Source: Fistulifera solaris
Taxonomy: Eukaryota
NCBI GenBank assembly: GCA_030295235.1
Contig: AP026169.1
Span: 310,001 to 374,000 of the forward strand
Direction: 5' to 3'
DNA: 64,000 bases
Of this stretch, positions 45,393 through 64,000 are shown one piece after another. A program made the translations under genes and the position numbers. Under the pieces are notes generated by a model. That model saw only the letters and a program-made list of their open reading frames with translations, was not told where the DNA came from and made no database searches. Position 1 is the stretch's first letter. The number at the start of each line of letters is the position of its first letter.

Positions 45393-46003
45393 GTTTTACA
45401 ATCTCCTTCCTTGGCACCAACTATTCATAAAGGCCTTGTTTTATTTATCATGATGTCGTTCGCAATCTACTCCAGTTTGTCGTTTAATCATTGTCGATTT
45501 TTTTTTGTTATGCGGTCACCCAGTTGTGTGGAAAATTCATCACAATCACAAGGGTTCGAAATAGGTCTGTCATCAATAACCTTAGAAAAATTCTGCGTTG
45601 TCTCATTGGCAAAACCCATTTAAGTAACTTGTTTCAACGGAGATATGAGTATCGCCAGCTCGGATGCCTACAACGTTTTCCCTCTAATTAGAGGTCTATT
45701 TAACGATTAGTACGTCCGTTGAAAACGTTGAAAAGTTGTATAGTACTTTGTAAAGGTACTTGTAGTGTCCACGCATTGTTAGCAAAATGTCTTTTGCAAC
45801 TTTCCCACCCACAATCGACGACGAAGGGCTGAGATGCATTATACCCCGAGTTATATCATCAGCACTCATCATTCCAAATCCTCCGCAGCATCCTTTTCAT
45901 GCAATTAACGATTCGGATAAACTAGTTGAAGGAAAACGAGGCAAACGGATCCTGTTTTGGCGGCGGTGGCAAGTTTCCATTGGCTTTTGGTATCGCACGG
46001 ACG

Positions 46004-49000
46004 ATGTCTTCCCGATCATCATATTATGATGAGTTTCCTCGCGAGAAATATCACTCCAACCAAGCCGCGTGGTCGCCATCTTGGTTAACGAACGCTAGCA
46101 ATGGATCAACTTATGAAAAAGACTATAGAATTGGGGACGAGAAACGCATCGATCGAGGGGCTCCCCAAACGGAATTTCCCGTTACAACGGAAAGAACTCG
46201 TCATGTTAGTCACAATTTCCGCCACACAAACTATGATACAACAACATACGGCCCCCCTCAGGATGACTATCCCTTTCTTTTTAGTGATCCTGTCGATGGC
46301 GCAAGTGTACGGACGGGGATGAGTCAACAAGAATTGCTCCGTCAGAAAGCGAGAGAATCTAAACAACGGTACAAGAAATCCAAAACGAAAAAGCCCGTCG
46401 TACAAATCACCGGTTTTCTTTCTTCACGGAATGCGAGAAAGGTGACTGACGCGACTCGATTGGATGATCTCTCGACGGCAGAAACCACCGTGACGGATTC
46501 GTCGTTGCGACACCGTACGAAAAGCAATACTTCCTTTCCGTTGCGCGTGGTACTGGATGGCGGTGATTTAGTTCTTACGGCAAAGCAAAATCGGTTCAAA
46601 CCGGAGTTTACCAAGCGAGATGAGGATTTTCCTTTGCTCTCCCGAAGTGCCAGTGGCTCGTTTCAAATGGATTTTCTCAATCCAAGCGACTCCTCATCGG
46701 GGAGACGTTACGAACTGCCCAACCCTCACTCTATTGAGCGCGAGCGTTCTGCTGTTTATCGTGGGAATCAATTCCAGCAGGACTTTTCGAATGGCAAGAC
46801 AATACCTCGGACAAATTCTGCTGAGTTACGAAGTAATCAAAGCGACCAAAACTCGTCTTCTCGTGAGTGGCTTTTGCATTCAGCAGAAGGAAGGGCAAAG
46901 AAACAACATTCAAACCGATCCGTCCAATTTCGCGAAGAAATAGTTCGACCTGCATCATTTGATTCTAAACATAGTTCTCGGGAAATACTAAAGAATTGTG
47001 ACCAACAACCCAAGTCGATCCTACGCAAATCACGGTATCACGTTCAAAGTGGCGGAGTTCGGATGAGCTCAAGTCCATCCCGATTTATCATTCGAAAACC
47101 TGTAACACCCGAACGAAAAATTGGTCAACACTTGGCCAAGTCGGCTCCATCCTTATATTCACCGTCTGACGTTCTCGACGAAACCGGACGAATTTTCTCA
47201 CCTGTTATGCAAGACGCCGAGATCAGTGGATCTTCTGCATTCTCTGATGAGCGCTATCCGGACCCTCCTCTTGATAGCATCCCTGTAAGTACGCTGCAGC
47301 ATTCTGCAAGAATACATGATATTCTTGCTGATTCCTTTCTAACTCCACTGCAGATTGATGACGATGAAACAACGCTAGCCTCGAGGAATGACGCTTTCTT
47401 GGAAACAGTTGCTGCGATCGTTATTCAAACAAATGCTAGGCGATTTCTAGCGATGCGATACGTCGATAGGTTAACGGAGCAAATCGTAAACGAGATGCAT
47501 GCCAAGTATGTACGGCTCTACAAAAATGAGCACCGGATAAACGGGAACGTGGTGCATGAAATCACGCCCTCAACAAAGTCTGATACAAATCGCGCTCAAA
47601 CATCATTCAACGCAGTACCGGTATCTCCTCAGCGCACCGACCACAACCGAATATTAAAGGATGACATGCAACAGGAAATGGGGTATGATTTGTTCAATCT
47701 TGCTGCTATTCGGATCCAAGCGGCCTTCCGTGGATTCTGGGCGCGAGATTCGTTGGACGTTGAACATTTTTGCGCATCCCTGATCCAAAAATATGTTCGC
47801 CGGTATTTGTGCGAAACAAAGTACAAATATGGACATTATCATGTTTATCCTTATGCTGTTCGAATTCAAACCACGTGGCGTGGGGTATTGGCAAAGCAAA
47901 ACCTCCATCGATCGATAGGGGCAGCCATTCTCATTCAAGCGTACGCTCGAGGTTTCATTGAGCGCCTACCGAGCCAGAAAAGTGTGTTCAGCTATGCGAG
48001 GAGAACTGAATCGGGGCGTTATGCGAAGACTGAAAAGTTAAGGATGACTAATTCATCCGGCGACCCCTGGCAGAAAGGACTAGCCAATGACCTTTGGCAA
48101 GCACGAAAAAACAGAACCTCGGAAACCGACGACAAGAATGCCTTTCATCCACCACCGCATGTCATCAATAACGCCCCAACACATCCTACCATTCCTTCAA
48201 TGTCTTTTCGCAAGGAACAGAATCGATCAACGAGTTTCACATATCTGAGAGACCAGAGAACTGAAAGCAGTACAGCAATAGAACTGTCCCAGCCCTCTCA
48301 AGTTTCTGATGTGAAGGCACTAGCACCTCCTTATCAGCGGCCGGCCCCATCGAAGCTCGCCAATTTTGATCACGTGGCGGCCAATGAGATAATGGCAGCA
48401 ACCAAGATTCAAGCAAGGTACCGTACTCACACGTGCGAAAGAAAGCTGATTCGCTCGCTTGTCGATATCCTGATCGTACAAACTGTCGCTCGACGGTGGA
48501 TTGCGAGAAGACGTGCAGCTCGCCTCCGAACCTTGCGAGATCGTTGTCGCACTATTGTGGCGAATCGAGAGTCCGAGTCGAATAAATATAAACCCGCACC
48601 GGCTCGACTGGTCAGTCGTTCCGAATTTTTCCAGAATCGAATACTGCCCAAGGGACTCAATAGCCACCCTCAACTTGCAACCACACAGTCTGGGCCGTCC
48701 TTTGACGAGGATGAATATTATCAGTCCGAGAGGGAGCGAAGTGGTGATAGTCGTGACTCCTCTGTACATAGGGTGAAATCAATGGGTGGCAACAACCGAC
48801 AGAGTGTTAGTTACGGTGAAAGAGCAAGAGGACCAAGTATGGAGACAAGAGACCACCCAGTCTCGTCACAGCCCCCACAATGGGCCAATGTGTCACTTCG
48901 GTCAACCAAAAGCAAAGGTCCCGTCACAGTGAAGGAACGATCGGGGACAACACCCCAACTAATAGAGAGCTCAGGATCTGAATCTCGCGTTTATTCGATG

Positions 49001-49126
49001 CCATCTTACGACTCCGAAGCCACCAATGCGGCGATACAGAATGGGAGTTCAGCAAGAAGACAAGTTGTAGTAACACCGCCTGCTCTGCTCAAGAAGAATA
49101 CCGACAGAAAAGTGTTGCGACGATAG
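46004..49126 (+). CDS. IQ calmodulin-binding motif protein (probable in-frame intron 47285-47353)
   Basis: Multiple IQxxxRGxxxR motifs (IQTNARRF, IQAAFRGFWAR, IQTTWRG, IQAYARG, IQARYR) within a disordered Ser-rich protein. Confidence 0.82.
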   Translation: MSSRSSYYDEFPREKYHSNQAAWSPSWLTNASNGSTYEKDYRIGDEKRIDRGAPQTEFPVTTERTRHVSHNFRHTNYDTTTYGPPQDDYPFLFSDPVDGASVRTGMSQQELLRQKARESKQRYKKSKTKKPVVQITGFLSSRNARKVTDATRLDDLSTAETTVTDSSLRHRTKSNTSFPLRVVLDGGDLVLTAKQNRFKPEFTKRDEDFPLLSRSASGSFQMDFLNPSDSSSGRRYELPNPHSIERERSAVYRGNQFQQDFSNGKTIPRTNSAELRSNQSDQNSSSREWLLHSAEGRAKKQHSNRSVQFREEIVRPASFDSKHSSREILKNCDQQPKSILRKSRYHVQSGGVRMSSSPSRFIIRKPVTPERKIGQHLAKSAPSLYSPSDVLDETGRIFSPVMQDAEISGSSAFSDERYPDPPLDSIPVSTLQHSARIHDILADSFLTPLQIDDDETTLASRNDAFLETVAAIVIQTNARRFLAMRYVDRLTEQIVNEMHAKYVRLYKNEHRINGNVVHEITPSTKSDTNRAQTSFNAVPVSPQRTDHNRILKDDMQQEMGYDLFNLAAIRIQAAFRGFWARDSLDVEHFCASLIQKYVRRYLCETKYKYGHYHVYPYAVRIQTTWRGVLAKQNLHRSIGAAILIQAYARGFIERLPSQKSVFSYARRTESGRYAKTEKLRMTNSSGDPWQKGLANDLWQARKNRTSETDDKNAFHPPPHVINNAPTHPTIPSMSFRKEQNRSTSFTYLRDQRTESSTAIELSQPSQVSDVKALAPPYQRPAPSKLANFDHVAANEIMAATKIQARYRTHTCERKLIRSLVDILIVQTVARRWIARRRAARLRTLRDRCRTIVANRESESNKYKPAPARLVSRSEFFQNRILPKGLNSHPQLATTQSGPSFDEDEYYQSERERSGDSRDSSVHRVKSMGGNNRQSVSYGERARGPSMETRDHPVSSQPPQWANVSLRSTKSKGPVTVKERSGTTPQLIESSGSESRVYSMPSYDSEATNAAIQNGSSARRQVVVTPPALLKKNTDRKVLRR

Positions 49127-51204: not shown

Positions 51205-53018
51205 AGAAGGAAATTATTTTGTTGCATTTGTGGCGATGCAAGTTCTGTTGGGACGGACTGTAAAATGAAGAAAAGGACGGACTACCGTATCGTGGGGATA
51301 CATCCTTGAGACGCCTCACGCGTATCCACGGAGGATAGATAGGATCCATGGTCACTTTTTCAAAAATATTGATTACCTTTCCTTTTGATAAAAATTGAAG
51401 GCTTGGGGTCAGCAATGCCATGGCAACTCAATGTCAATTTCGGTAATAAGTGGATCTTCGCCAGAAGCTTCCTGCTTCGTTAGCATATTTGGAGCCTGCC
51501 AATCACTGATCTCGACATACCGCGGCACTAGGACATCAGACCTTCCGAACTAAAGTTTACATTCATATGCAGCTAGCCTAAATGAGGCGGTACTGCGTTG
51601 CGACGTTATCTTGTTGTGGTGCTGTAAACAGCTGTAGAAAGGGATAGTAAGACGGTAGTCACAGCAAATCAAGCATCGATTAAAAAACAGCCTCGGGCGT
51701 ATATCAGTTTGAAGGTCTGGGACTAAATAGTCGGACCATTGACAAGCTTTCCCTTGACGCCTAGGTCAACGTTGAGGTGCTTCCTCGAAGCGATTTAGCA
51801 CCAAATAAAAATATTCTTCTTTGAAGTGGAGTAGTAAGTAGTAAGGACTTTGTGCTTATTAAACGGGAATGAAATCATTTTGAGTCGTCGGCCTTTTTCA
51901 AGCCAAGGGCTAACCGCGTAGCTTTGATTCTTGAGTCGTAATACGGAGTAAGGATTACGGTACTGGGGTAACAGATTCAATTGAAACACGTCCGTGCTTC
52001 GAATCCGACGCCAGCAGACAAATAATAGGAAAAAACCTCAACTTCAATACTTCGTAAGGACCATTTTTAAAGCGACGCAAAGTGAAGACAAGGAGACGAC
52101 AAAAAAGACAATTAAGAACTAACAAAATCGATCAAAAGTCGTTTTCATCTCTCTCTCCTCCGGTAAATTTGAGAGGTAGACAGGTATAGATAGTAGATAT
52201 AGAGGCTCGCCCTTGAGTGACTGGAGACCAAAACCCAGGAGAACGAGGAGTTTTATTAGGAAAATAACATTCCCCTAATATTCATTCCTTGTTTCCTAAA
52301 GTCAAAATGCAATTTTGACAATCGATTTCTTTTGTTTTCTAGCTACTAGATTCGTACCTTTGTATGTCGTGAAACCAAATCTACTTGTACATGTATCTGC
52401 TTCATTGGCAATTAGCACGCAAAAGCATCCAAGCCCTACCAGGTAGTACAGGAGAGAGAGAGAGAGCTAAGAGCTAGCTTACCACTTACCACGACCTCCG
52501 TAAGAGTAAGACAAGAGAGGGCTACAGTTTTGGCTCAAATTTCAAATTTCAAACCAACAGAAGTTGGATCTTATCAAAGGTTGGATTTTGTAAGGATGTC
52601 TTTTCCGTTGAAGTCTAGTCCTCACACGGGAATGTGTGTCTACTTTGTACAAAGAATGTGCTACGTAGAGCAAAATTTGGCTAGTTTAAGAAAAAAAAAA
52701 GATTACCGGTGTAACGATTAATTTTACTTAAAGACTGGGTACCGATGCGCATGAGTGAGAGACGAGCTAGGATGGTCATGAGTCAATTTAAACTCCGTGT
52801 AGGAATTTCATGTTGTTGTGTCATCGGGAGCTTTTTTTTTCAGAACATATAATGAATGATGATGATAGTTGTTGAGTGAAAGTATTCTCCTTTGGAGTAG
52901 TTTGTCGACTTCCGGTCGTTATCACCTCTAATACCTGGGAGACACGGGAACGCACCACTGCTTGGTACATTTCTCTACGGGGGCCTACGTGATTGTACAC
53001 TTTTTCCGGCACCTTGCT

Positions 53019-53066: not shown

Positions 53067-53168
53067 CACCACGTGGTGGCTGGTGGCGTCCAAGTTGACG
53101 TCACAATTGACAGGCTTCACAAAAAAAACAAAAGCGCTCGGACACGAAGCGCGTGCTCAACACGTGCC
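53067..53168 (+). promoter_or_regulatory. Putative iron/bZIP/bHLH-responsive promoter module of the first FEA1/ISIP2a-like gene
   Basis: Palindrome CACCACGTGGTG (53067-53078), TGACGTCA (53096-53103) and ACACGTGCC (53160-53168), lying about 270-365 bp upstream of ATG 53432. Confidence 0.5.
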
Positions 53169-53431: not shown

Positions 53432-55065
53432 ATGTTGTTAACCTCGATTGCCCTTGCAGCTTTGCTTGTTGGCTGCGAAGCCAAGATTGGAGCTCGTAAG
53501 CTCTCTTACCAAAAGATCTACAAGTTCACACCCAAGACGCAGGTTACGGATCATGTAAGTTTCGGCGACCTTGCTGTTCTTCATCATACTGTCGTTAGTA
53601 CGACTCATTTTATACTTTATGACCTTATTTGATCAGGCTGCCATTGATCTGGATCAGCAAGAAATTGAGACTTTGTTGACCGACCAGTATCTTTGGTCCG
53701 CTGCCCAAGCTGTTTACGAAAATGGTGCTCACTCCAAGTCGTATGCCGAAGTCACTCTTTCGACGCCCTTGACCACCACTATGGCAGCAGATGTCGAGAT
53801 TTCGGGAGTTGCCTTAGATGGTACCACTGTGAACGGAAAGATTATGGAGGAAGCTGCCAGTGGATCGTCGGTCATCAAAGTTCAGTACGCGACTTCGGAT
53901 AAGCAAGAAAAGTATGTTGGATGCCAGGTTGGAGGAAGCTCGGAGCCTGTAACAACTGGATGTAAGGTGTCGCCATTCGTTTGCTCGACCTTTCTTTTAC
54001 ATGTAACATGTTCTGACGACTGTTTCTCTTTCAGGCTTCGCCGACACTGGATCGCTCTCCATGTCGGGAACCACCCTTGACTACACTGCTGTCGCCAACA
54101 AAAACGCCCGAACCATCAGGGGTTTCAGCACCAACGACGCGAGACACCGTGTTGAAAGCAACCCGGATCAGGCGTATTACAAGGACATGCAAATGTTCGT
54201 TGACTACTACGGATCCTCCGACTACGCCGACAAGTGGATCATGGCTGCCCTTGCCAACGGATCCACCGGATACTCTGGACTTGGTGAAACCAACTTCTCT
54301 ACCCTCGATGACACTGGTCGAAAAGAAGCCGTCGTCAAGGGAACTGTCTTCCTTGCTATCTTCATGTACGTCATCCGCGAGCTTGAGGACGCCATCGATG
54401 ACTGCGTCGTTCAGTGCGATGCCGATACCTGCAACGACGATCCCGTGCATGCATTGGATGAGGCAGTTGCTTTCTACACTGGATCCCTCCACCTTACTGA
54501 AGGATCGGACGGCAACCTTCTTTTTTCTTTGGCTGAAAAGCGTTGTGAGAACTTCCTAACCTGCGAAAACGGAGAAGCCGCTGTCAACAACAGATTGTTT
54601 GTTCTATTTAACCGCATGCAGAACCTTTTGCAGCAAGGAAAATGCGAGGAAGCCGCCACTGTCGTTTCAGATATCACCAACATCATGTACGTCCCCATGA
54701 TTCAGGGAGCTTTCCGTTACGCCTACAAGAGTGGTGAGCAGGATGATCAGACTCCCAAGTCGGAAGCTGAGGGAGCTACTTTCGCCGCCGCCGTCCTTCC
54801 CAAAGTCCACAAGTGCAATGCCGCCGACGCGCAACTTATCTACGACAACATGAAGGTTGGTAACACCGAGCCCGTGGACTGGCCTGCCGTCAAGAGCGCC
54901 TTTGAGCGAAACTACCGATGCATGGGTATCACTTGTGCCGATGTTGGTGGTCAGAGCGATGGAGAACTCTATTTTGAAGGAGCCGGTCCCTGCAGTTCCA
55001 GCTTCATGACCTATGTCGGCCTAGCTCTTGGTCTTGCCGCTGCTTCTCTTATAGCCTTCTTCTAA
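53432..55065 (+). CDS. ISIP2A: FEA1-domain / ISIP2a (phytotransferrin)-like iron-binding surface protein, paralog 1 (introns 53555-53636, 53962-54034); GPI-like C-terminus
   Basis: Signal peptide, RKL propeptide, TQVTDH/AAIDLDQ, YADKWIMAAL, MYVIRELEDAIDDC, VHALDEAVAFYTGSL and YRCMGITCADVGG. Ends in a hydrophobic tail. Exact orthology to ISIP2a is not established. Confidence 0.82.
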
Positions 55066-55930
55066 AGCATACATGTCAATAAATAAATGAATGTAGTAGA
55101 GAAACAGTGATTTGCTAATCCCATTGTTAGTCTGTATTAACTCGTCGAGACGTGTAGTTTGCTACAAGCGTGAATTCAAAAGAAGCACACCTGATACGGT
55201 ACCTGGTACCGGTACCGTTTTCTGGCAAATCATTGATTTTGACTAAGTGTACACGCGACCTTTCCAAACAGACACGGAGTACATTTCAGTCACGAGACAC
55301 TATTTTTCAAGACAGACGGCTACCTAACCTCTGTTTATTCTGCTCGACCGGTACACAACATTTGTCTTTATTACAGTGTATCTTCCTTTAACTGCCTTTG
55401 CAATGCACAAATCTCAAATCTATTTCTTACCTCGGAAATCCAGGCCATCCTTATCCTTGTACTCGGAGTAATTAATATGGACCCACTGTGTATGCGACCT
55501 TTGGCCACGACTGCGTTTCAGTCATGAATCGTGATGTCAATACCGACCGCTCTACTGGTACAGACCCATGAGTCACCTCAACTCGGTGTGCTAACTTGGC
55601 AGGCTACATTTTCTTTGTCACTATTCATGATGAATTAATAGTGGTCCAACGTTTAGATAACCACATACTCACGTGTAAAACCTTGTCAAAAAATACTAGC
55701 CGCATGAGTATCCCTAATCCTATTCGCGATTCGCTCTATATCTCTGTCAACCACAATCAACCATAAAGTTTGATAGAATGACCGTCACAAATTACGCACT
55801 ATGATCTTAAAAGTCTACAAGGGTGCAAAAGAGTCATTGCACTTTCCCATCGAGCCACCATAAAACATGCACCCAAATAGAATAATACGAGCAGGGAACA
55901 AAGACATTGCGATCAAAAGGAGAAACAACC

Positions 55931-57805
55931 ATGGCAGAGAATGATCGTCAACTATTTTCACTGAGTCAAGAGACTCTGGAAGTCCCTTTATATGAACCGA
56001 CTTTCAACTGGGCCAACGCGGTGAGTCCGAAAACGGCTTTTGCATCCCGATGCTGTTCTTGTTTTCGCTGATTTTAGTTCTCTCTCTTTCTTCAGATGAC
56101 TATCGATTTAGATATAGCCAAAATGAGTGAGCTCATGGCAAAGGGAACATTCGATGACTTTATGAAAGCGAAGCAAGTGTATGAGTTCGGTGCTTTTGCG
56201 TGGCCTTATGCGGAAATGCAAATTGACGGTGGTTCACCGGTCGAAGTGAAAAAAGGAACACCGGTGACGGGCTATACGATGCTGAATGATCCGGTTCATG
56301 GTTACGTGTTAGAGCATGTCAAACCACGACAAGGAAAATTTAAAATTGAATACGACATTGATAGTTTGTCGAAGCAATCGGCGACTTCGCAATGTTCCGT
56401 GGGAGGGAATCCAAATCCAAACTTCCGCAATTGTAAGTAATGCCGTGAAGGGACACAGCCAGTTAAAAAGAAAGTTCTAACCCACGACACACGCTCATGT
56501 AGGCTTTACAGAAAAAGGAGCTATACGGGTAGATGGAATTAAGGAACCCTTGCATTACGAATACAACAAAGAAGTGGATAACCGAAACTTTCGCACCATT
56601 CAACGTTTAAGTACACTAGCAGGCTCGAAAATGAAGATGTGTGCCAACTGTCAGTATTTTCACGACTTTAAGAAAGCCAACGACTATTTTCAACTTCCGT
56701 CGTATGCGGACGCGTGGATTACAGCGGCCCTGACGGGGACAGCGGTAGAAATTCCCGAAGGAGGAAGAGGAGGTGCTGATTTTTCGACCTTCAGTTTCAG
56801 TTCACGCGCTCGTAAGTACAGAAAACTCATTTGTTGAAGTGATTAGTAGCTGAAAGAAGCAGTACTAACGATCAACGTATTCGATTTACAGACGCGGTGG
56901 AATACGCCGCATCCTACATGGCAGTCACCCAATTTGTTCTCCGAGAGATGGAAGAAGCTTTCTATACGTGCCAAGCTGACTGCGACAATGGCACGAAGTG
57001 TTTCGAAACCGCTTTGCATCATGTAGACACGGCCGTGGCATTCTACACAGGCTCTCTCGTCCACACCAAGGGCGAAGACAAAGGGATACTATTGTATTCC
57101 CTAGCCAATCGAATGTGCACGAAATTCAAAACTTGCGGAAAGAACGGAAACAGCAATTACGGCACATCCGTTGTGAACAAACAAATCTTTGAGGAGTTCC
57201 ACAAATCGCAACAAGCAGCATTGCATGACCAATGTCCAACTGTTCGACAGGCGAAGGAGGCGATTGCTCATAAGATTAATGTTCCCTTGATTCAGGCTAC
57301 TTTGGAAGCTGCGTACAAACGCGATTCAATCACGGGAAAGGATAGTTCCCAAGAAGAAGAAGAAGAAGCGATTGGCGCCACCCTGGCAGCAACGGTCGAG
57401 CCGCTAGTCGCTGCTTGTAATCAAGCGGATTCCCAACTTATCCATGACAATCTCAAAACGGGAGCGGATAGTACGTCGTTTCTCGACGTAAAGAGGGCAT
57501 TGGAGAGAAATTACAAATGTATGGGTGTTACGTGCGAGATGATCGGTGCTTTACACAACAGCAGGACGGGGAAGCCGTATCCAGGTGCGGAAGCGTGTGT
57601 AACGCCCAGCGAAATGAAGGAAAAGCTGAAAACACATTTGCCGTGGGCTAGTATCACCTTCGTGCTGCTTGTGATATTCTCTTGGTGGTCCTACAAAAAG
57701 ATGCAAGCGAAGTGGAACGAGAGAAAGCGCCGTCTGAAGCGTATTGATGAAATGAATGACCTCTCAGATTCAGACGACGAAGACGAGCACATGATCTTTA
57801 CATAA
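55931..57805 (+). CDS. FEA1/ISIP2a-like paralog 2 (introns 56021-56095, 56433-56502, 56812-56891); TM plus acidic cytosolic tail; no visible signal peptide
   Basis: MTIDLD, YADAWITAAL, FVLREMEEA...C, HHVDTAVAFYTGSL and YKCMGVTCEMIG. TM LPWASITFVLLVIFSWWSY. Confidence 0.78.
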
Positions 57806-58624
57806 GTCACGAAGGACTCTCTAGTTTCCTGTGTAAGACACGGGTTTCTTACTTCGAATGGCAAGTTGTGTATCATTCCTTCATAAAACATCTACAAGTG
57901 ATATCTTTAGGTAGTTCTAGACTAAAACACTGCAAATAATATACTCTCTTGAACTACAATAAGGCAAATCCTAGAGTGAGTGAAACGTCGCGCACATTTG
58001 TCGATAGTTCGTCTCCTGGTAGCCCTAGACAATTATCTACTTTCTAGCTAGATAAGTGCATGTCGTGCTGGGTTACCAACGGGAATGAACCGTGCCCATC
58101 GCGCACTTCCCCAAGCCAATGCCTGTCAAACCGTAAAACGCACCTCTTTTTTTCGTTGGCAGCTAGACCTATCACGAATCACGACAGGCAATCAATTTTT
58201 AGACAAATGCACGTCAGAAACGGCAACTGAACTCAAGACCGAAGCGGGGGGCAATTTTGAAACAAGTGTGCGAGAACGAGTCACGCCCGAATTTCTTTGT
58301 ACAGTCATGTATCTCATCGGATCGGATCGTTGCTCGGAGACAGATATTTGGCAAAGGATTTCATGTACAATGTCACTCTTTGCGGGTTAGTTCATGGTAT
58401 TGAATCACCTAAGTAAGCTAAGACAAGAATTTTTCTCATCTAAGTAATTTTGGCAGACGCACAATAATTATGGCTTCATTTGTCTGAAAAGAGGGAGTAT
58501 CGTTCAAATGTATACGGCGGAACGACTCAACGGGGATCAACTGAAGAGTTTTTCATTTTCTTTTGCCTGCACTTCTTTTTCTCTTCAGAAACATCTTTAC
58601 CTTTTCATCATTGCTTTATAAACT

Positions 58625-60526
58625 ATGAAGATTATAGCTTCTCTACTATTAGGCTCTTTGACGTTGGCTCACGCTAGTCAAGCAGGACAAAGGCGTCTTG
58701 AGAAGGTACGTTTCGTGGGTGACCAACGACGCACTGTGGGGATCCTATCTTCTCACAACACCATTCTCTCAAAAGAGTACGCTGGCTGGATATCAACCCC
58801 AAACCCAAATTACAAATGAAGCTGCGCTGGATCTGGATCAGCAGATTCTAGAGGAACGCGCGGGTGTTGCCGATTTCGATCATGCGCAGAGGATCTACTC
58901 GAACGGAGGTCACTCGGGCAGTTTCGCTCTCATCACGCTCATTGCTCCCCCGGACAACAAATCCTACAAAGCTGGCACTACCGTCATGGGTTTCACGGAA
59001 CGAGGCAGCGATTTGATCGCCTCTTTGAAAGAAGACACCGAATGGGGAGTTGTCAACGGCGGAAACGTCACTATTGAAGTGCTGTATACCGTGTCGGACG
59101 AGCAGTCGCACCATGTGGACTGTATGGTGGGAGACTTGTTTGCCTTGGAAGCAGCGTATCGTGTCGGATGTAAGTAACAGAATCCGGCGGAAGGTCTTGA
59201 ATGTACCAGCGCTACAAAATATAGCTCATATTATTTTCTCTTTCAGGCTTGAAACCCTCGGGAGAAATCGAAATCATCCCCGTGACACCCTCCCAGACCA
59301 TCGACAAATTCACATACGAATACGACGCACGACTTGATAACATCAACTGGTTGACATTGCAAAGTCTCAGCACAAACGCCGAAACAACTATGAGAAGCTT
59401 GTCGGGTAGCTATTATAGTGACTTTCAAAAGTTTGTTGAATTTTACGGCGATACCAATTATGCCGACAAATGGGTTCTAGGAGCTGCCAATGGTGAAGAT
59501 ACTGCTTTTAGCAAGAACCGTGGAAACGCCAACTTCTCGGCCTTGTGGCACACGGGTGGTGGAAAAGGACGCGTCGAAGCGATGACTCATGGTGTCTGGT
59601 TGTTGAACGTATGGATGTATGTGATCCGCCAGATGGAGTATGCCATTGATTTGTGCAGTGTGGAGTGCACCGAAGCTACCAAGGATGCCTGCGAAGACCA
59701 TGCAGTCGCCGAATGGGACAAGGCGGTGGCGTATTATGCTGGGTCGTTGGCGGGTGAGAACGGTGATGGACACGGTGTTTTCCCCTACGCGTACGCCAAC
59801 ACCCGCGCCAAGGAATTCAAGACGACTGGATACAACAGTGACGACGTTTCTGGAGCATCCTATGTCAACTTGGAAGCCATCTATCTATTCCAGCGGGGAC
59901 AGGGCATTCTCATGGAAGACATTGGATCGGCCAGCCGTTGCGATTCGGCTAAGAATATCAAGAACTCGATCACCAATCTCATGAAAGTTCCGTTGATTCA
60001 GTCAATCTACCGCTTTGCGTGGATGCGTGAGTTTCAGACTAATTTTGATGAAAAGCACCAAGCAACTGCAGCAACGTACGCTGCTGCTCTCTTACCCTAC
60101 GTTCATGAATGCAAAGCCTCCGATTCTTCCTTCCTTTACGATCATATGAAAATCGGTGCCCATGCTGATAATGCCGAGGGTAGTTTCGCCAAAATTAAGT
60201 CTAAATTGGAGGGAATCTACGACTGTCTTGGTGTAACGTGCTCACAAATTGGTGGAATTTACGCGGACGGTGAATACGCGGAAGGTGCCGAACCTTGCAA
60301 GGATGGGTCGTTCGTGATTGACCGCACTCCGGAAGGAATGCGACAAAGTGAGGGTGCCCCACAAAATGACCGAAACCCAGTCGTCACTTTGGGAGCTATC
60401 GTTGCTGTATTCGCCTTGCTAGGACTGGCGGGTGTCGTCTATTTACGCCGGAAAGCACCCAAGGAAATCGAAGATACCAAGAATATTGCGGCAGTAACCG
60501 CCATTTCTGATGTCGATTTGGCGTAA
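58625..60526 (+). CDS. FEA1/ISIP2a-like paralog 3 (introns 58706-58775, 59170-59246); signal peptide, TM plus short cytosolic tail
   Basis: MKIIASLLLGSLTLAHA, RRL, GYQPQTQITNEAALDLDQ, YADKWVLGAA, MYVIRQMEYAIDLC, WDKAVAYYAGSL and YDCLGVTCSQIGG. TM VVTLGAIVAVFALLGLAGVVYL. Confidence 0.82.
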
Positions 60527-61260
60527 CCCTTGATATTGTGCTCTGAGGATGTCAGCGAGCCTCTCAGGTAACAGTTCACTTCTATGGATGACAAAAGCCT
60601 TTGTTGAATGAAGTCTCTTATGCATACCGTAAATTTTTTCATTTTTTTTTACAAAAATTTTCATTGAGAAAATAGCTTACACAACATGTCGAAAGCTACA
60701 GATCGAACACAAACACTGCAACAAAATACATCAATGCTTACGGTGTGATGAAGTCGAGGTACCCCTACCGGTGCCTTATTATACCCAGAGAAGATAAGAA
60801 GTTCACGATCGCCCTAGGTATAACCTTGCCTTTTACGTGATACGGAGTAATAAACCTTAAAAGTAGAAAAGTCGGTCCTTTCGTGACTCGATAGTAGAAC
60901 ATCCCCCAAAGTACGTTTTGGTTCCCAGTCACTACTATGCGCGGTCACAATAATGGTCCCAATTATAACTCCACAACAACATTTCCGCGTCGCGCGGTCA
61001 TGGGATGCTTTGCTATTTTTCTGTTTCACTCCTTTTGCATCCCATCACTGCGAAAATTGCCATTGGAAAGCAAAATTGCTTCTGGTGACGAGTCGGCACA
61101 CAAGTCGATGTTATATGCAAAGAGTCCGCTGGGTGGATATTGAATTTAAGATTTTGTAACGCTTCGAACGGTTCGCTTCTTCATCGCGCAAAGGAATTCA
61201 CGCACCTAAAAGGTTGACCGTCTACTTCTTCAGCAAGAAAATTCTTGGAACCAGAAAGCT

Positions 61261-64000
61261 ATGGCTTCGATGGAAAGGCTCGCAAAACCGTTTCGGCGCA
61301 AAAATCGAACTTTGAAATCACAGGATGATCTTCATATTTTCCGCTCATCGGATACGAGTTCTTCAGCAAATGTTATTGAGCGGAAAATGGTGCGAGACGA
61401 TTCTGATATTGGAAGAAATTCTCGCACTATCATCAGTGCTATGACGCCCAAATTACTTAGTCTGAAAACGGCACCCAAAAGGGGAACTCCTGGAAGAGCT
61501 CGACGAAGGAGACGAAACACGGACGACTCGGTGGATTCCAGTAGTGCTTCCACGCGTGCATCGATGATCGGACGGTTGTTCTCTCGAAAGAAAAACGGGA
61601 CACCCACGTCTTCCCGCTTTCATATAGGTCGAAGTGAATCAATCAGCAGCGGGGACGGTTCTATGGATAAGGATTTTGCTCGGGTGTCGATTGAAATGGA
61701 TGGCGTCCCCGAATTACCGCGGGGGATTCTCAAAAACTCACGCGGGCGTCAAGCTGCGAAACAGACACCGACAAAACTCAACGATCCAACACACACTCCT
61801 TATCAACTTGAGACGACTTCCGACCGGAACACGGCGGATGCCACGGAAAATGCCGAGGACGTGCAGTACGATTACGACGATACCGACCCTATGCCGCGGC
61901 GAACTCCCGGCGAACGTGCGCGCTACAGTGTTTATCATGGTCAAGTCAAGCGCAAGATGCGTGTGCGGCCGTACCATTTGTTCCCTCTCGATTTCAAAAT
62001 GACGGAAGAAGAAATCTATGCCGATAGTATGAAGCCATCGCAAAACTTTATCTTCCTTAAATCCTATCTGGCCCCGACTTCAAAGGAAGTTGAGAAGATG
62101 GATGCGCCTATAGCTGTGTCTCAGTTGTTTGGGTCACCACAAGAAGACGCACGTATTGGTGCTCTCAGGGTTGAGGTACTGGGATGCATCGCTCTGCCAC
62201 GGACAAAGCCGGATATAGCGGTGTATATGGTTTGCGGCGATGCAGCTTTCGCCTCTGACGTTCTTTCAGGCTACCGCTCACCTATCTGGCCGTCGCTTTC
62301 CAGACGAGCAGCGGTCTTTCCGCTGCACCACGCGTTTGCTCAACTTTATGTTGGAGTTTTTGATGTGCGAGCGAACAAGAATAAAGAGAATGACGTGTTT
62401 TGCGGGAGGGTTTCACTTGATATTGCTGCTTTGAGATCAGACACGGAGTACGACGTGACATTCCCTCTTCGTGCGTCTACTTTTGTTTACGATAGAAGAA
62501 AGCGAGGAGTAATTCGGTTACGATTTTCGGTTCATTGGTTTAGTGAGAGGGCTGCACTCGTTTCTTATTTCAAGAAACCAAAAAGTCTGACCTCTTGTGC
62601 GCCTTTGTATCACGGAAGTCCAACTATTCCCTGCGCAGACCCGAAGACTTTCCGCAATGTTGCTTTCACTGTATACGGCCAAGATCTTCCAGGAAAGTAT
62701 TCTCGAAATGCTTTCAAGTCAACAATGCGAGAATACACTCTCTACCAGCAGAACACAACTTTGCTGGCCCAAATGCTAGCTTTGGATGCAATTTTCTATG
62801 AGCGACCGCACATCTCTTTATATCTCTTTCTCTCTGGCATGTACTGTATTTCGTCGAATTCTATAAGTCTGGTACCCGCTGTATTTGTTGGGTACATCAT
62901 CATTTTGTTCATTGAGAACTACATGCATTACATCGACGGAACAAAATTCAATATGGGATACAGACCCCACACCTTGCAAGAAATTCTAAATGGTTTAATT
63001 GGCCATGCTTCCGGAGCTGGTGGATTTTTCGAACCGGCGCTGGTAGAGAAGAAAACGAAAAGGAAACGTGGGTACGAGTGCGACGCGAAAGACGACAAAG
63101 ACGAGGTTGAAATCGAGCCATTGGATCACCGCGAGTTTCCCTTCTCTGACCGCGATGCATATCCCAAATGGTCTGTTGAAGACGCTCTGGCACCAAGCTC
63201 AAATAAGAAAAATGGTAAGTGCATGAGCGGAAGCTTTGGTTGAATATTCTTTCTTTCATCTCAATCTCACCGCCTCGGATCTACCAACAGGAGGAAACAC
63301 GAGGCTTCACGGACGTCTGTCGGTATATTACACTGCTGCCCCACCAACAGGAGGAGACAAAGCTCGGGGCGAGGACGAGGACGATGCGAGTGAAGATAGC
63401 GAAAACGACGATGAAACTATTGACACAACAGACACCATGTTCAATCTTGATTATGACGTCGACGACGACCTTGACGAATCTGAGCACGAAACTCTGCACA
63501 ACGCTTACCAACACCAAGACAATCTTTTGAATCCAACCGTAACGAAAACTCGGTACAAACTTGGCCCGCCGCAGGACGTAGATAAAAGAGGAGCCAAGGT
63601 ACCCCCACAACTCCAGCTGCAAAAAACTGAACGAAGGATACACGACTATTCCTTCAAAATTGCGGTAGAGCCAATTTTCGCTCCTACAAATATTGAAACC
63701 GGCTTAGACGTCGGTATCACCAAAAACACTACAGTTGAAAGTCGAGAGATGATGATGTTGAACGATCAGAATTCCGCTTTGAAGAAGCGAAAAGCAGTCT
63801 ACGACGAATTCGATAAACTTCTTGGGTTGAAAAGTCGCTCTGCGAATCCATTGAATCGAATCATGTCGTCATTTCTTGGACCGCTAATGCGAATGTGCCG
63901 TATCAGTCTCTATGCATTCCGAATCTCCTACCATACCTTTAGCTGGAGAGATCCATTCTTCTCTTTCTGGTCTTGGTGGCGCTTTGCGCAGTTTGCCTTA
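61261..64000 (+). CDS. C2-domain membrane protein (intron 63215-63290); runs off the window end
   Basis: C2-like GALRVEVLGC...LYVGVFD...DVFCGRVSLDI...GVIRLRFSV followed by hydrophobic TM segments. The frame continues after the intron. Confidence 0.75.

Follow-up and report, generated by a model that had tools for sequence, protein, structure and literature searches.

ISIP2a/Fea1-family genes at the locus

We analysed a 64,000-nucleotide window from Fistulifera solaris (contig AP026169.1, positions 310,001 to 374,000), in which three same-strand spliced genes of the ISIP2a/Fea1 family, here g1, g2 and g3, lie side by side (Table 1). All seven introns modelled in the trio were seen as GT..AG joints in at least two of the three RNA-like runs (X2–X4), and none in the DNA-like run X1; the four runs come from one study, the run type is a guess, and contig depth is unfit for ranking the genes. 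The database record FisN_8Lh165 is 100% identical to g1, and the lengths and ends of records 8Lh166 and 8Lh167 agree with our models of g2 and g3. The first exon of g2 is an addition to the preliminary description of this DNA. A homeologous copy of the whole trio is present and intact, and comparison of homeolog with homeolog gave dN/dS values of 0.088, 0.072 and 0.056 for the trio genes. The genes are intact, transcripts arise from the locus pair, and each gene is under purifying selection. The g2 copy on C23 carries three one-base indels; a pseudogene reading of this copy was dropped because record P0176 is intact.

Table 1. Features of the g1–g3 cluster (positions are those of the window)
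Feature	Positions	Strand	Details
g1 (FisN_8Lh165)	53432..55065	+	492 aa; exons 53432-53554, 53637-53961, 54035-55065
ACACGTGC, low-iron promoter motif of Lommer et al. 2012	53160..53167	+	272 bases before g1 ATG; weak
GPI-signal-like end of g1	54994..55062	+	S470-S472 small triplet directly after last conserved Cys
g2 (FisN_8Lh166)	55931..57805	+	549 aa; exons 55931-56020, 56096-56432, 56503-56811, 56892-57805
g2 weak transmembrane helix (~495-513), basic stretch, acidic cluster ending xxFT	57638..57802	+	tail type kept in clade
g3 (FisN_8Lh167)	58625..60526	+	584 aa; exons 58625-58705, 58776-59169, 59247-60526
g3 L194 (R in putative site)	59351
g3 F224 (Y in putative site)	59441
g3 A313 (H in putative site)	59708
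g3 transmembrane helix (~537-558), 26-residue cytosolic tail	60380..60523	+	conserved NIAAV

The preliminary description had read the genes as clearly divergent paralogs sharing the motifs xDLDx, YADxW, RxxExA..C, Dx AVAxYxGSL and CxGxTC. All five motifs occur in each of the three proteins, the C-termini match those quoted there, and the pairwise identities are 32%, 35% and 30%, a similarity well above chance (BLAST E 1e-52 to 1e-80).

Family assignment and predicted fold

Assignment of the trio to the FEA1/ISIP2a family, as first proposed, holds through a Pfam match for g1 and through full-length homology and a shared predicted fold for g2 and g3. Exon 3 of g1 reached the Pfam Fea1 model (PF07692) with 27.1 bits at a cut-off of 25, as did the homeolog P0122 with 29 bits; the suggested HMM check was positive to this extent, and no match was listed for full-length g1 (P0001) or for g2 and g3, either as exons or as full proteins. 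Since full-length g1 is itself without a listed match, the Fea1 model is marginal for this group. By BLASTP, g2 and g3 match g1 over ~470 residues (E 9e-70 and 2e-80), and in the ESM Atlas the first matches of g2 and g3 were Fea1 clusters (features 0.92 and 0.96; TM 0.67 and 0.70).

The AlphaFold2 model of g1 (pLDDT 92.7) is built of helices plus a single beta-rich insert (residues 76–173). Foldseek returned no match to this model at E≤0.001, and the best structural match of g1 was weak (VIA Z 6.6, rmsd 3.9, 147 aligned), as was that of an insert-free domain from C46 (Z 6.9, rmsd 5.1, 218 aligned). One PDB sequence search gave no match and a second gave a single chance match (E 6.3). A likeness to EfeO/imelysin was rejected, being a single weak row (7wgu, E 0.19, TM 0.13). 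No transferrin was among the fold matches listed, which says nothing against a transferrin fold; according to PMC10372677, ISIP2a differs from transferrin both in its sequence and in its predicted structure.

Putative ligand positions

The phytotransferrin pTF/ISIP2a of Phaeodactylum tricornutum (Phatr3_J54465, B7FYL2) shares its family and ectodomain type with the trio, and its putative ligands, as given in a figure legend of 10.1101/806539, are D48, Y71, Y214, H294 and R183. These positions were mapped onto the trio indirectly, by spacing through a proxy, P0056, the sole protein examined that fits all five spacings. On this mapping, all five positions are kept in g1 (D47, Y68, R175, Y207 and H288) and in g2 (D36, Y59, R173, Y204 and H288), likewise in the homeolog of each, and g3 keeps two of five, with R>L, Y>F and H>A in both homeologs. 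Charges conserved elsewhere, at the equivalents of E292, R319 and E395, are lost in g2.

Close relatives of g3 share two of these substitutions where scored (H>A in 7/7, R>L in 5/5), and loss of R, Y and H together was found in only 3 of the 185 scored non-redundant homologs. The three residues are kept jointly in only 91 of these 185, so binding cannot be judged strictly by the putative site; within the g2 clade the His is present in 10/12 and is not invariant.

Signal peptides, anchors and tails

Signal peptides are predicted for g1 and g3, each with a hydrophobic core in the first 15 residues (9-residue KD 2.8 and 2.2, simple hydropathy). A GPI signal requires, besides the signal peptide, small residues at omega, omega+1 and omega+2 and an uncharged hydrophobic C-terminus of 17–31 residues. 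The C-terminus of g1 is uncharged and mostly hydrophobic up to the stop, with 22 residues after S470, and the hydrophobic stretch reaches the stop in both homeologs, leaving no cytosolic tail. A simple home-made omega-site rule, as opposed to a trained predictor, fits 11/11 g1-clade proteins examined and 0/2 controls (g2 and g3), and in those proteins the small-residue triplet is kept 19–24 residues from the end throughout the clade. The genome holds GPI transamidase genes, with two copies each of Gaa1 (E 1e-19) and Gpi16 (E 3e-15) above the cut-off. The GPI-signal-like end noted earlier on this paralog is borne out to this degree, although no linker separates the omega site from the conserved Cys before it, and g1 may have a simple transmembrane anchor without a tail in place of the predicted GPI anchor. 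The term ‘GPI-anchored’ was absent from the 20 literature matches listed, of 44. In genome searches that set a lower bound, g1 is the sole single-domain member with both a signal peptide and the full putative site among the trio and the C19/C20 copy.

For g2, simple hydropathy detected no signal peptide in either homeolog (best 9-residue KD 1.18). In-frame stops lie upstream of its start, and no splice joint upstream of g2 is among the listed RNA joints. A hidden signal-peptide exon, or splicing of g1 exon 1 to g2 exon 2 (for which intron position and phase are equal), has no supporting joint among those listed; the contigs cannot reveal a transcript start, so an unseen 5′ exon encoding a signal peptide is possible. 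The hydrophobic N-terminus of P0321 looks like intron read-through and was left out of the counts. The transmembrane helix of g2 is weak (KD 1.74; homeolog 1.45, below the 1.6 cut) and is followed by a 36-aa tail, and that of g3 is stronger, at KD 2.66 by simple hydropathy.

These termini bear on the relay proposed in the preliminary description, read here as all three proteins binding iron and a sheddable g1 scavenger feeding g2 and g3 as endocytic receptors at the surface. Consistent with a relay are the distinct and conserved C-termini of all three proteins, the five of five putative ligand positions in g2, and the signal-peptide-like hydrophobic N-terminus of broad-clade g2 relatives such as Amphora P0258. 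The role of endocytic iron receptor nevertheless sits poorly with g3, where the putative carbonate Arg, the His and one Tyr are all replaced, and with g2, given its missing signal peptide in both homeologs. As for the distinct sorting signals expected earlier, dileucine and NPxY motifs are absent from both tails, and the single YxxPhi match lies at the g2 membrane boundary. We regard the relay as improbable.

Clades, linkage and promoter

Ectodomain-only trees of 308 family homologs placed the paralogs in three separate clades: g1 (n=20, support 1.0), g2 (n=12, 0.999) and g3 (n=35, 1.0), each with an SH-aLRT of 99 in a tree of 60 of the 308. Monophyly of the trio had a support of only 0.498. 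Each paralog's tail type is conserved in its own clade, at 45% ectodomain identity, and all 30 NIAAV tails fall inside the g3 clade. GPI-like ends occur in 67/308 homologs, with at least 21 changes along the tree, and proteins with a transmembrane helix and tail are placed inside and next to the g1 clade. Since anchor variety is common in the family, three anchor types in one cluster are less surprising than first assumed. Contigs of equal size, compared by length and not by gene order, suggest that the trio may still be linked in diatoms only 45–57% identical. A metagenome scan of 73 candidate stretches gave one locus (L024), a distant homolog with no paralog in the 9 kb upstream; as a single distant locus near a contig end, it is uninformative on synteny. 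The separate clades, conserved tails, purifying selection and probable old linkage support the subfunctionalisation put forward at the outset.

Complementary losses, of the tail in g1 and the site in g3, raise an alternative: a two-part receptor in which tail-less g1 binds iron and enters paired with a disarmed g3 that supplies the sorting tail, g2 serving an internal step. Conservation of the NIAAV tail in 30 proteins of one clade is consistent with such pairing, as are the probable linkage in distant diatoms and the failure of the genome searches, a lower bound, to find a Phaeodactylum-type all-in-one copy. Yet the tail predates the loss of the site, since R, Y and H are together in 4 of the 18 NIAAV-clade members scored and P0129–P0132, the next relatives of g3, retain the Arg. 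GPI-like ends also recur over the tree, the g1 clade mixes tailed and tail-less members, and tandem linkage can last without interaction. This pairing appears unlikely.

The cluster could also be a leftover tandem duplication under ordinary retention, with drifting tails, a tail-less transmembrane anchor on g1, and g2 and g3 no longer in iron uptake but in roles that are unrelated to it or confined to certain conditions. Multiple ISIP2a copies are indeed found elsewhere: five in Pelagomonas, three of which are up in low iron (PMC9481584), two in Bigelowiella, and one paralog in Phaeodactylum. The diverged Dunaliella transferrins likewise show no iron response (PMC10372677). At the locus, the low-iron promoter motif is conserved at g1 alone, where the homeolog retains its core CACGTGCC; the window holds three ACACGTGC matches against 1.83 expected, and 27 of 100 shuffles reach three, which is not above chance. 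Opposing ordinary retention are the dN/dS values below 0.1 and the fixed position of the g1-clade small-residue triplet, and tails conserved per clade at 45% ectodomain identity are not drifting. We consider it rather unlikely.

A proposed division of labour

We favour, at a probability of about one half, an old cluster of ISIP2a/Fea1 paralogs with a divided job and g1 as the main iron binder. Each paralog is missing a different part: the likely iron-binding residues in one, the export signal in another, the internal tail in the third. From sequence, this pattern suggests that the job is shared out, and such a division is likelier than the three-receptor relay. Section 6 of PMC10372677 lends support, since Dunaliella transferrins split in the same way into conserved and diverged domains. 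Against it weigh, besides the points on the site and the g1 anchor given above, that the source calls the five ligands no more than ‘putative’ and that they were mapped indirectly; the crossing of a membrane by the 490-residue, Cys-rich g2 domain without a signal peptide lacks explanation.

Under this division of labour, g1 would be the genome's main binder of ferric iron, assisted by carbonate. It would be secreted, sit at the cell surface on a GPI anchor, and descend from a tailed transmembrane ISIP2a whose tail was lost. As adaptors could not be recruited through a tail, g1 may enrich iron at the surface, to be taken in by nearby uptake proteins or through bulk membrane uptake, a mode nearer Chlamydomonas FEA1 than Phaeodactylum pTF. 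The type I membrane paralog g3, its canonical site apparently lost, may be retained for a non-canonical role (another ligand, scaffolding or trafficking) linked to its conserved tail. The remaining paralog, g2, keeps the site positions; as it lacks a signal peptide and its tail carries an acidic cluster, it would most likely act at internal membranes. The three would work in parallel, with no mutual contact required.

A bolder extension, which we hold to be quite unlikely, is that in some pennate diatoms phytotransferrin is split over one conserved cluster, with g1 as GPI-anchored binder, g3 as disarmed tail partner and g2 internal; if true, this would be a ligand-plus-receptor system rebuilt from one gene family. 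More generally, our data suggest that a number of old subfamilies share the family label, among them GPI-like forms (roughly one in five of the homologs seen) and forms lacking the putative site; pooled counting could be misleading. Within a single culturable diatom, the trio offers a natural experiment: the contrast between g1 and g3 bears on the importance of the proposed ligands, and g1 on the need for a cytosolic tail in the family's iron uptake.

Comparison with known systems

A search that left most subscription papers outside its reach found no literature on this trio. According to 10.1101/806539, pTF comprises a signal peptide (1–18), an iron-binding domain (19–493), a transmembrane segment (494–516) and a tail (517–537). 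This whole design was found in none of the trio: with ligand positions compared by spacing, the cytosolic tail is missing from g1, the signal peptide from g2, and three of the five ligand positions from g3. Chlamydomonas reinhardtii FEA1/FEA2 share the Fea1 domain (PF07692), and in the FEA1 sequence of PMC8098128 (Table 1 there) the Tyr, Arg and His-x-x-Asp positions are, by eye, as in the trio. A role in concentrating iron close to transporters has been proposed for FEA1. It is secreted into the periplasm and apparently has no counterpart of the beta-rich insert of g1, whereas the trio is predicted to be membrane-anchored.

The transferrin expansion of Dunaliella (PMC10372677) is like the trio a family of algal surface iron proteins with site-conserved and site-diverged members; unlike the trio, these are true transferrins, all with a signal peptide and transmembrane segment. 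Ostreococcus Ot-Fea1 and multi-domain Fea1 proteins (PMC4855317) share with the trio growth by duplication, but their domains are multiplied within one chain, whereas the trio consists of separate single-domain genes with different ends. Multi-domain members of the family are also present in the F. solaris genome (C28/C29 and C46).

Gene structure, transcripts and selection

The three ISIP2a/Fea1-family genes g1, g2 and g3 were modelled by splicing from the sequence, and their products share 30–35% pairwise identity. All five core motifs that the preliminary description had quoted as common to the paralogs are present in each protein. FisN_8Lh165 of Fistulifera solaris is identical to g1; the clusters that g2 and g3 retrieved contain 8Lh166/8Hh166 and 8Lh167/8Hh167. 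All seven introns have GT..AG joints, each found in at least two of three RNA-like runs (X2–X4, from a single study, their RNA nature being the tool's guess), and these joints, together with poly-A ends at 55118, 57959 and 60657 in the RNA-like runs, point to three separate transcripts. Parts of g2 and g3 are covered by contigs that do not differ from the window sequence; the contigs listed for g1 bear homeolog letters and hence are not assignable to this exact copy.

Coordinates of the trio and of further Fea1-family genes (window positions for g1–g3; positions in genomic stretches, L, for the others)
Feature	Position	Strand	Description
g1	53432–55065	+	492 aa, 2 introns
g2	55931–57805	+	549 aa, 3 introns
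g3	58625–60526	+	584 aa, 2 introns
Single-domain ISIP2a-like paralog pair	L017:3153–5093, L018:3624–5710 (C19/C20)		signal peptide, TM, tail
Very large multi-domain Fea1 protein	L021:5486 to L022:4819 and L019/L020 (C29/C28)		C-terminal TM, acidic tail
Two-domain Fea1 protein	L023:4365–6644 (C46)		signal peptide, hydrophobic GPI-like end

The homeologous trio lies on contig C23 with ∼88% nucleotide identity to the window trio (G000:C24). Between homeologs, dN/dS is 0.088 (g1), 0.072 (g2) and 0.056 (g3), with dS of 0.30–0.35, indicating purifying selection on all three genes. The g2 homeolog (L016) has three one-base indels, matching window positions 56249, 56767 and 57695, that are probably assembly errors; its database record, P0176, is intact.

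The g1–g2 spacer (55120–55760) is longer than that of the homeolog, and one DNA-like contig skips 360 of its bases (55120–55481). Depth in the DNA-like run peaks at 1767 over a repeat element 5' of g1 (52300–53000), which has loose ends in the RNA-like runs, and the 3' UTR behind g3 contains an intron (60567–60674; runs X2 and X4). The flanking genes encode an IQ-motif protein (45926–49126, E 7e-18) and a C2-domain-like protein (61210–64000, below cut-off), and their profile matches showed no connection to iron.

Family membership and fold

The Pfam Fea1 search matched exon 3 of g1 narrowly above the cut-off (27.1 vs 25 bits), as well as the g1 homeolog, and listed no match for g2, g3 or full-length g1. 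Membership of g2 and g3 in the same family rests on their homology to g1 over the full length and on ESM Atlas matches, in features and structure, to Fea1 clusters. AlphaFold2, run on 148 sequences, models g1 as a helical protein (pLDDT 92.7) whose beta-rich insert spans residues 76–173; ISIP2a has been described as differing from transferrin in predicted structure (PMC10372677). This insert (approximately window 53739–54105) shows a weak likeness, with a VIA Z of about 6 and Atlas rows below the naming bar, to the barrels of phage baseplate J/gp47 and of translation factors.

Termini and phylogeny

At its C-terminus, g1 has a small triplet followed by an uncharged hydrophobic stretch. A simple omega-site rule for GPI signals, which is not a trained predictor, fits all 11 g1-clade proteins examined and neither g2 nor g3, and the genome encodes the GPI transamidase components Gaa1 and Gpi16. 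GPI-like ends are common, being carried by 49 of the 195 homologs that made up the first set and by 67 of the 308 in the complete one; on a tree restricted to ectodomain cores and covering 308 of the 311 candidates, they need 21 changes versus a shuffled mean of 61, near-duplicates included. The g1 clade (n = 20, support 1.0) comprises 14 GPI-like proteins, five with a TM plus tail and one unclassed. The g2 clade (n = 12, support 0.999) sits in a looser group of 28–34 proteins (support 0.54–0.88) holding 23 of the 25 acidic tails, and the g3 clade (n = 35, support 1.0) contains all 30 tails with NIAAV, a motif of the g3 cytosolic tail. This clade-wise distribution indicates that the tails are old and conserved. 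Quick IQ-TREE analysis of a 60/308 subset gave an SH-aLRT of 99 for each clade. The acidic cluster of g2 resembles furin-type CK2 sorting signals; scanning the tails for motifs gave one CK2-type match, with dileucine and NPxY motifs absent from the tails of both g2 and g3.

Signal-peptide-like starts are present on g1 and g3. The first exon of g2 is hydrophilic in both homeologs, with in-frame stops upstream in both, and no upstream splice joint was seen among those of the RNA-like runs. The conserved cysteines and the basic stretch after the TM suggest that the g2 ectodomain is luminal, an anomaly for a membrane protein modelled without a signal peptide. Broad-clade relatives of g2, such as Amphora P0258, carry an N-terminal hydrophobic stretch; we found no close full-length relative outside Fistulifera solaris.

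The putative iron site and a proposed division of labour

The putative ligands of Phaeodactylum tricornutum phytotransferrin (pTF; background in PMC7676907 and PMC7966952) are D48, Y71, Y214 and H294, with R183 as the carbonate residue (10.1101/806539). These were mapped by spacing, not by aligning pTF, through Cylindrotheca P0056, the one protein of the set matching all five spacings exactly. The corresponding g1 positions are D47, Y68, R175, Y207 and H288. Both homeologs of g1 and of g2 keep all five; g3 keeps two, with substitutions L194, F224 and A313, and is additionally altered at three nearby conserved acidic residues. Its close relatives show H>A in 7/7, R>L in 5/5 scored and Y>F in 5/7. 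Among the 185 scorable of 214 non-redundant homologs, a sample enriched for divergent proteins, 91 keep Arg, Tyr and His, 19 have lost Arg and His, and three, including g3, have lost all three. Because about half of the family deviates at some position, the putative site serves as a guide and not as proof of binding. By-eye comparison alone suggests that Chlamydomonas FEA1 (sequence in PMC8098128) keeps the Tyr, Arg and His.

Compared with the pTF design of signal peptide, ectodomain, TM and cytosolic tail, g1 is without the cytosolic tail, g2 without the signal peptide and g3 without the full putative site. Our main reading, at a probability of about 0.5, is a parallel division of labour, in which g1 would be a GPI-anchored iron binder at the cell surface, g3 a non-canonical membrane paralog, and g2 would reside on internal membranes. 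What the data show for the trio is its gene structure, the selection on it, its clades and its residue states; anchoring, binding, location and regulation are inferred. A two-part receptor formed by g1 and g3 appears unlikely, ordinary retention of paralogs that abandoned iron uptake slightly more so, and the relay of three iron receptors put forward in the preliminary description the least likely. Paralogs with conserved and diverged sites are reported among Dunaliella transferrins; those with a conserved site show the strongest response to low iron (PMC10372677).

Regulation

The low-iron motif ACACGTGC, reported 150–250 bases upstream of genes (PMC3491386), lies 272 bases 5' of g1, and its core is retained in the homeolog; comparison of window and homeolog found no conserved copy before g2 or g3. 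With three occurrences in the window against 1.83 expected, not above chance, the motif is a weak hint of iron regulation of g1. Contig depth (53657–60421) is high for g1 and g3 in X2 and low in X3, with g2 and the downstream C2 gene reversed; as contig depth does not rank genes, this pattern is only a lead towards g1/g3 co-regulation.

Linkage and other family members

The records of P0100 (g1 clade, 57% identity to g1), P0337 (g2 clade; its cluster representative P0222 has 46% to g2) and P0130 (g3 clade, 45% to g3) all name a Logan contig of 22,043 bases. Further equal-sized contig pairs measure 9,907 and 4,439 bases (g1 and g2 clades) and 29,220 and 24,744 bases (g2 and g3 clades), and contigs of 44,469 and 18,852 bases, from near-identical strains, have all three types. 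The identical sizes suggest that clade members share contigs, with a presumed order and adjacency.

The trio, whose functions are predicted, is real and more sharply defined than first described, a variant inside a known family. A literature search of incomplete coverage found no published account of it or of a GPI-anchored ISIP2a. Five ISIP2a copies are reported in Pelagomonas (PMC9481584), two in Bigelowiella (PMC7883536) and a paralog in Phaeodactylum (PMC9792268).

Genome searches, giving lower bounds, revealed additional Fea1 members: single-domain on C19/C20, multi-domain on C28/C29 and C46. The C19/C20 genes form a fourth single-domain ISIP2a-like pair, and in its C19 member Leu replaces the putative carbonate Arg. 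No homeolog of the C46 protein was found in these searches. The C29/C28 protein is frameshift-broken in this assembly, and its domains are without the beta insert; multiplied domains are already known in the Fea1 family (PMC4855317).
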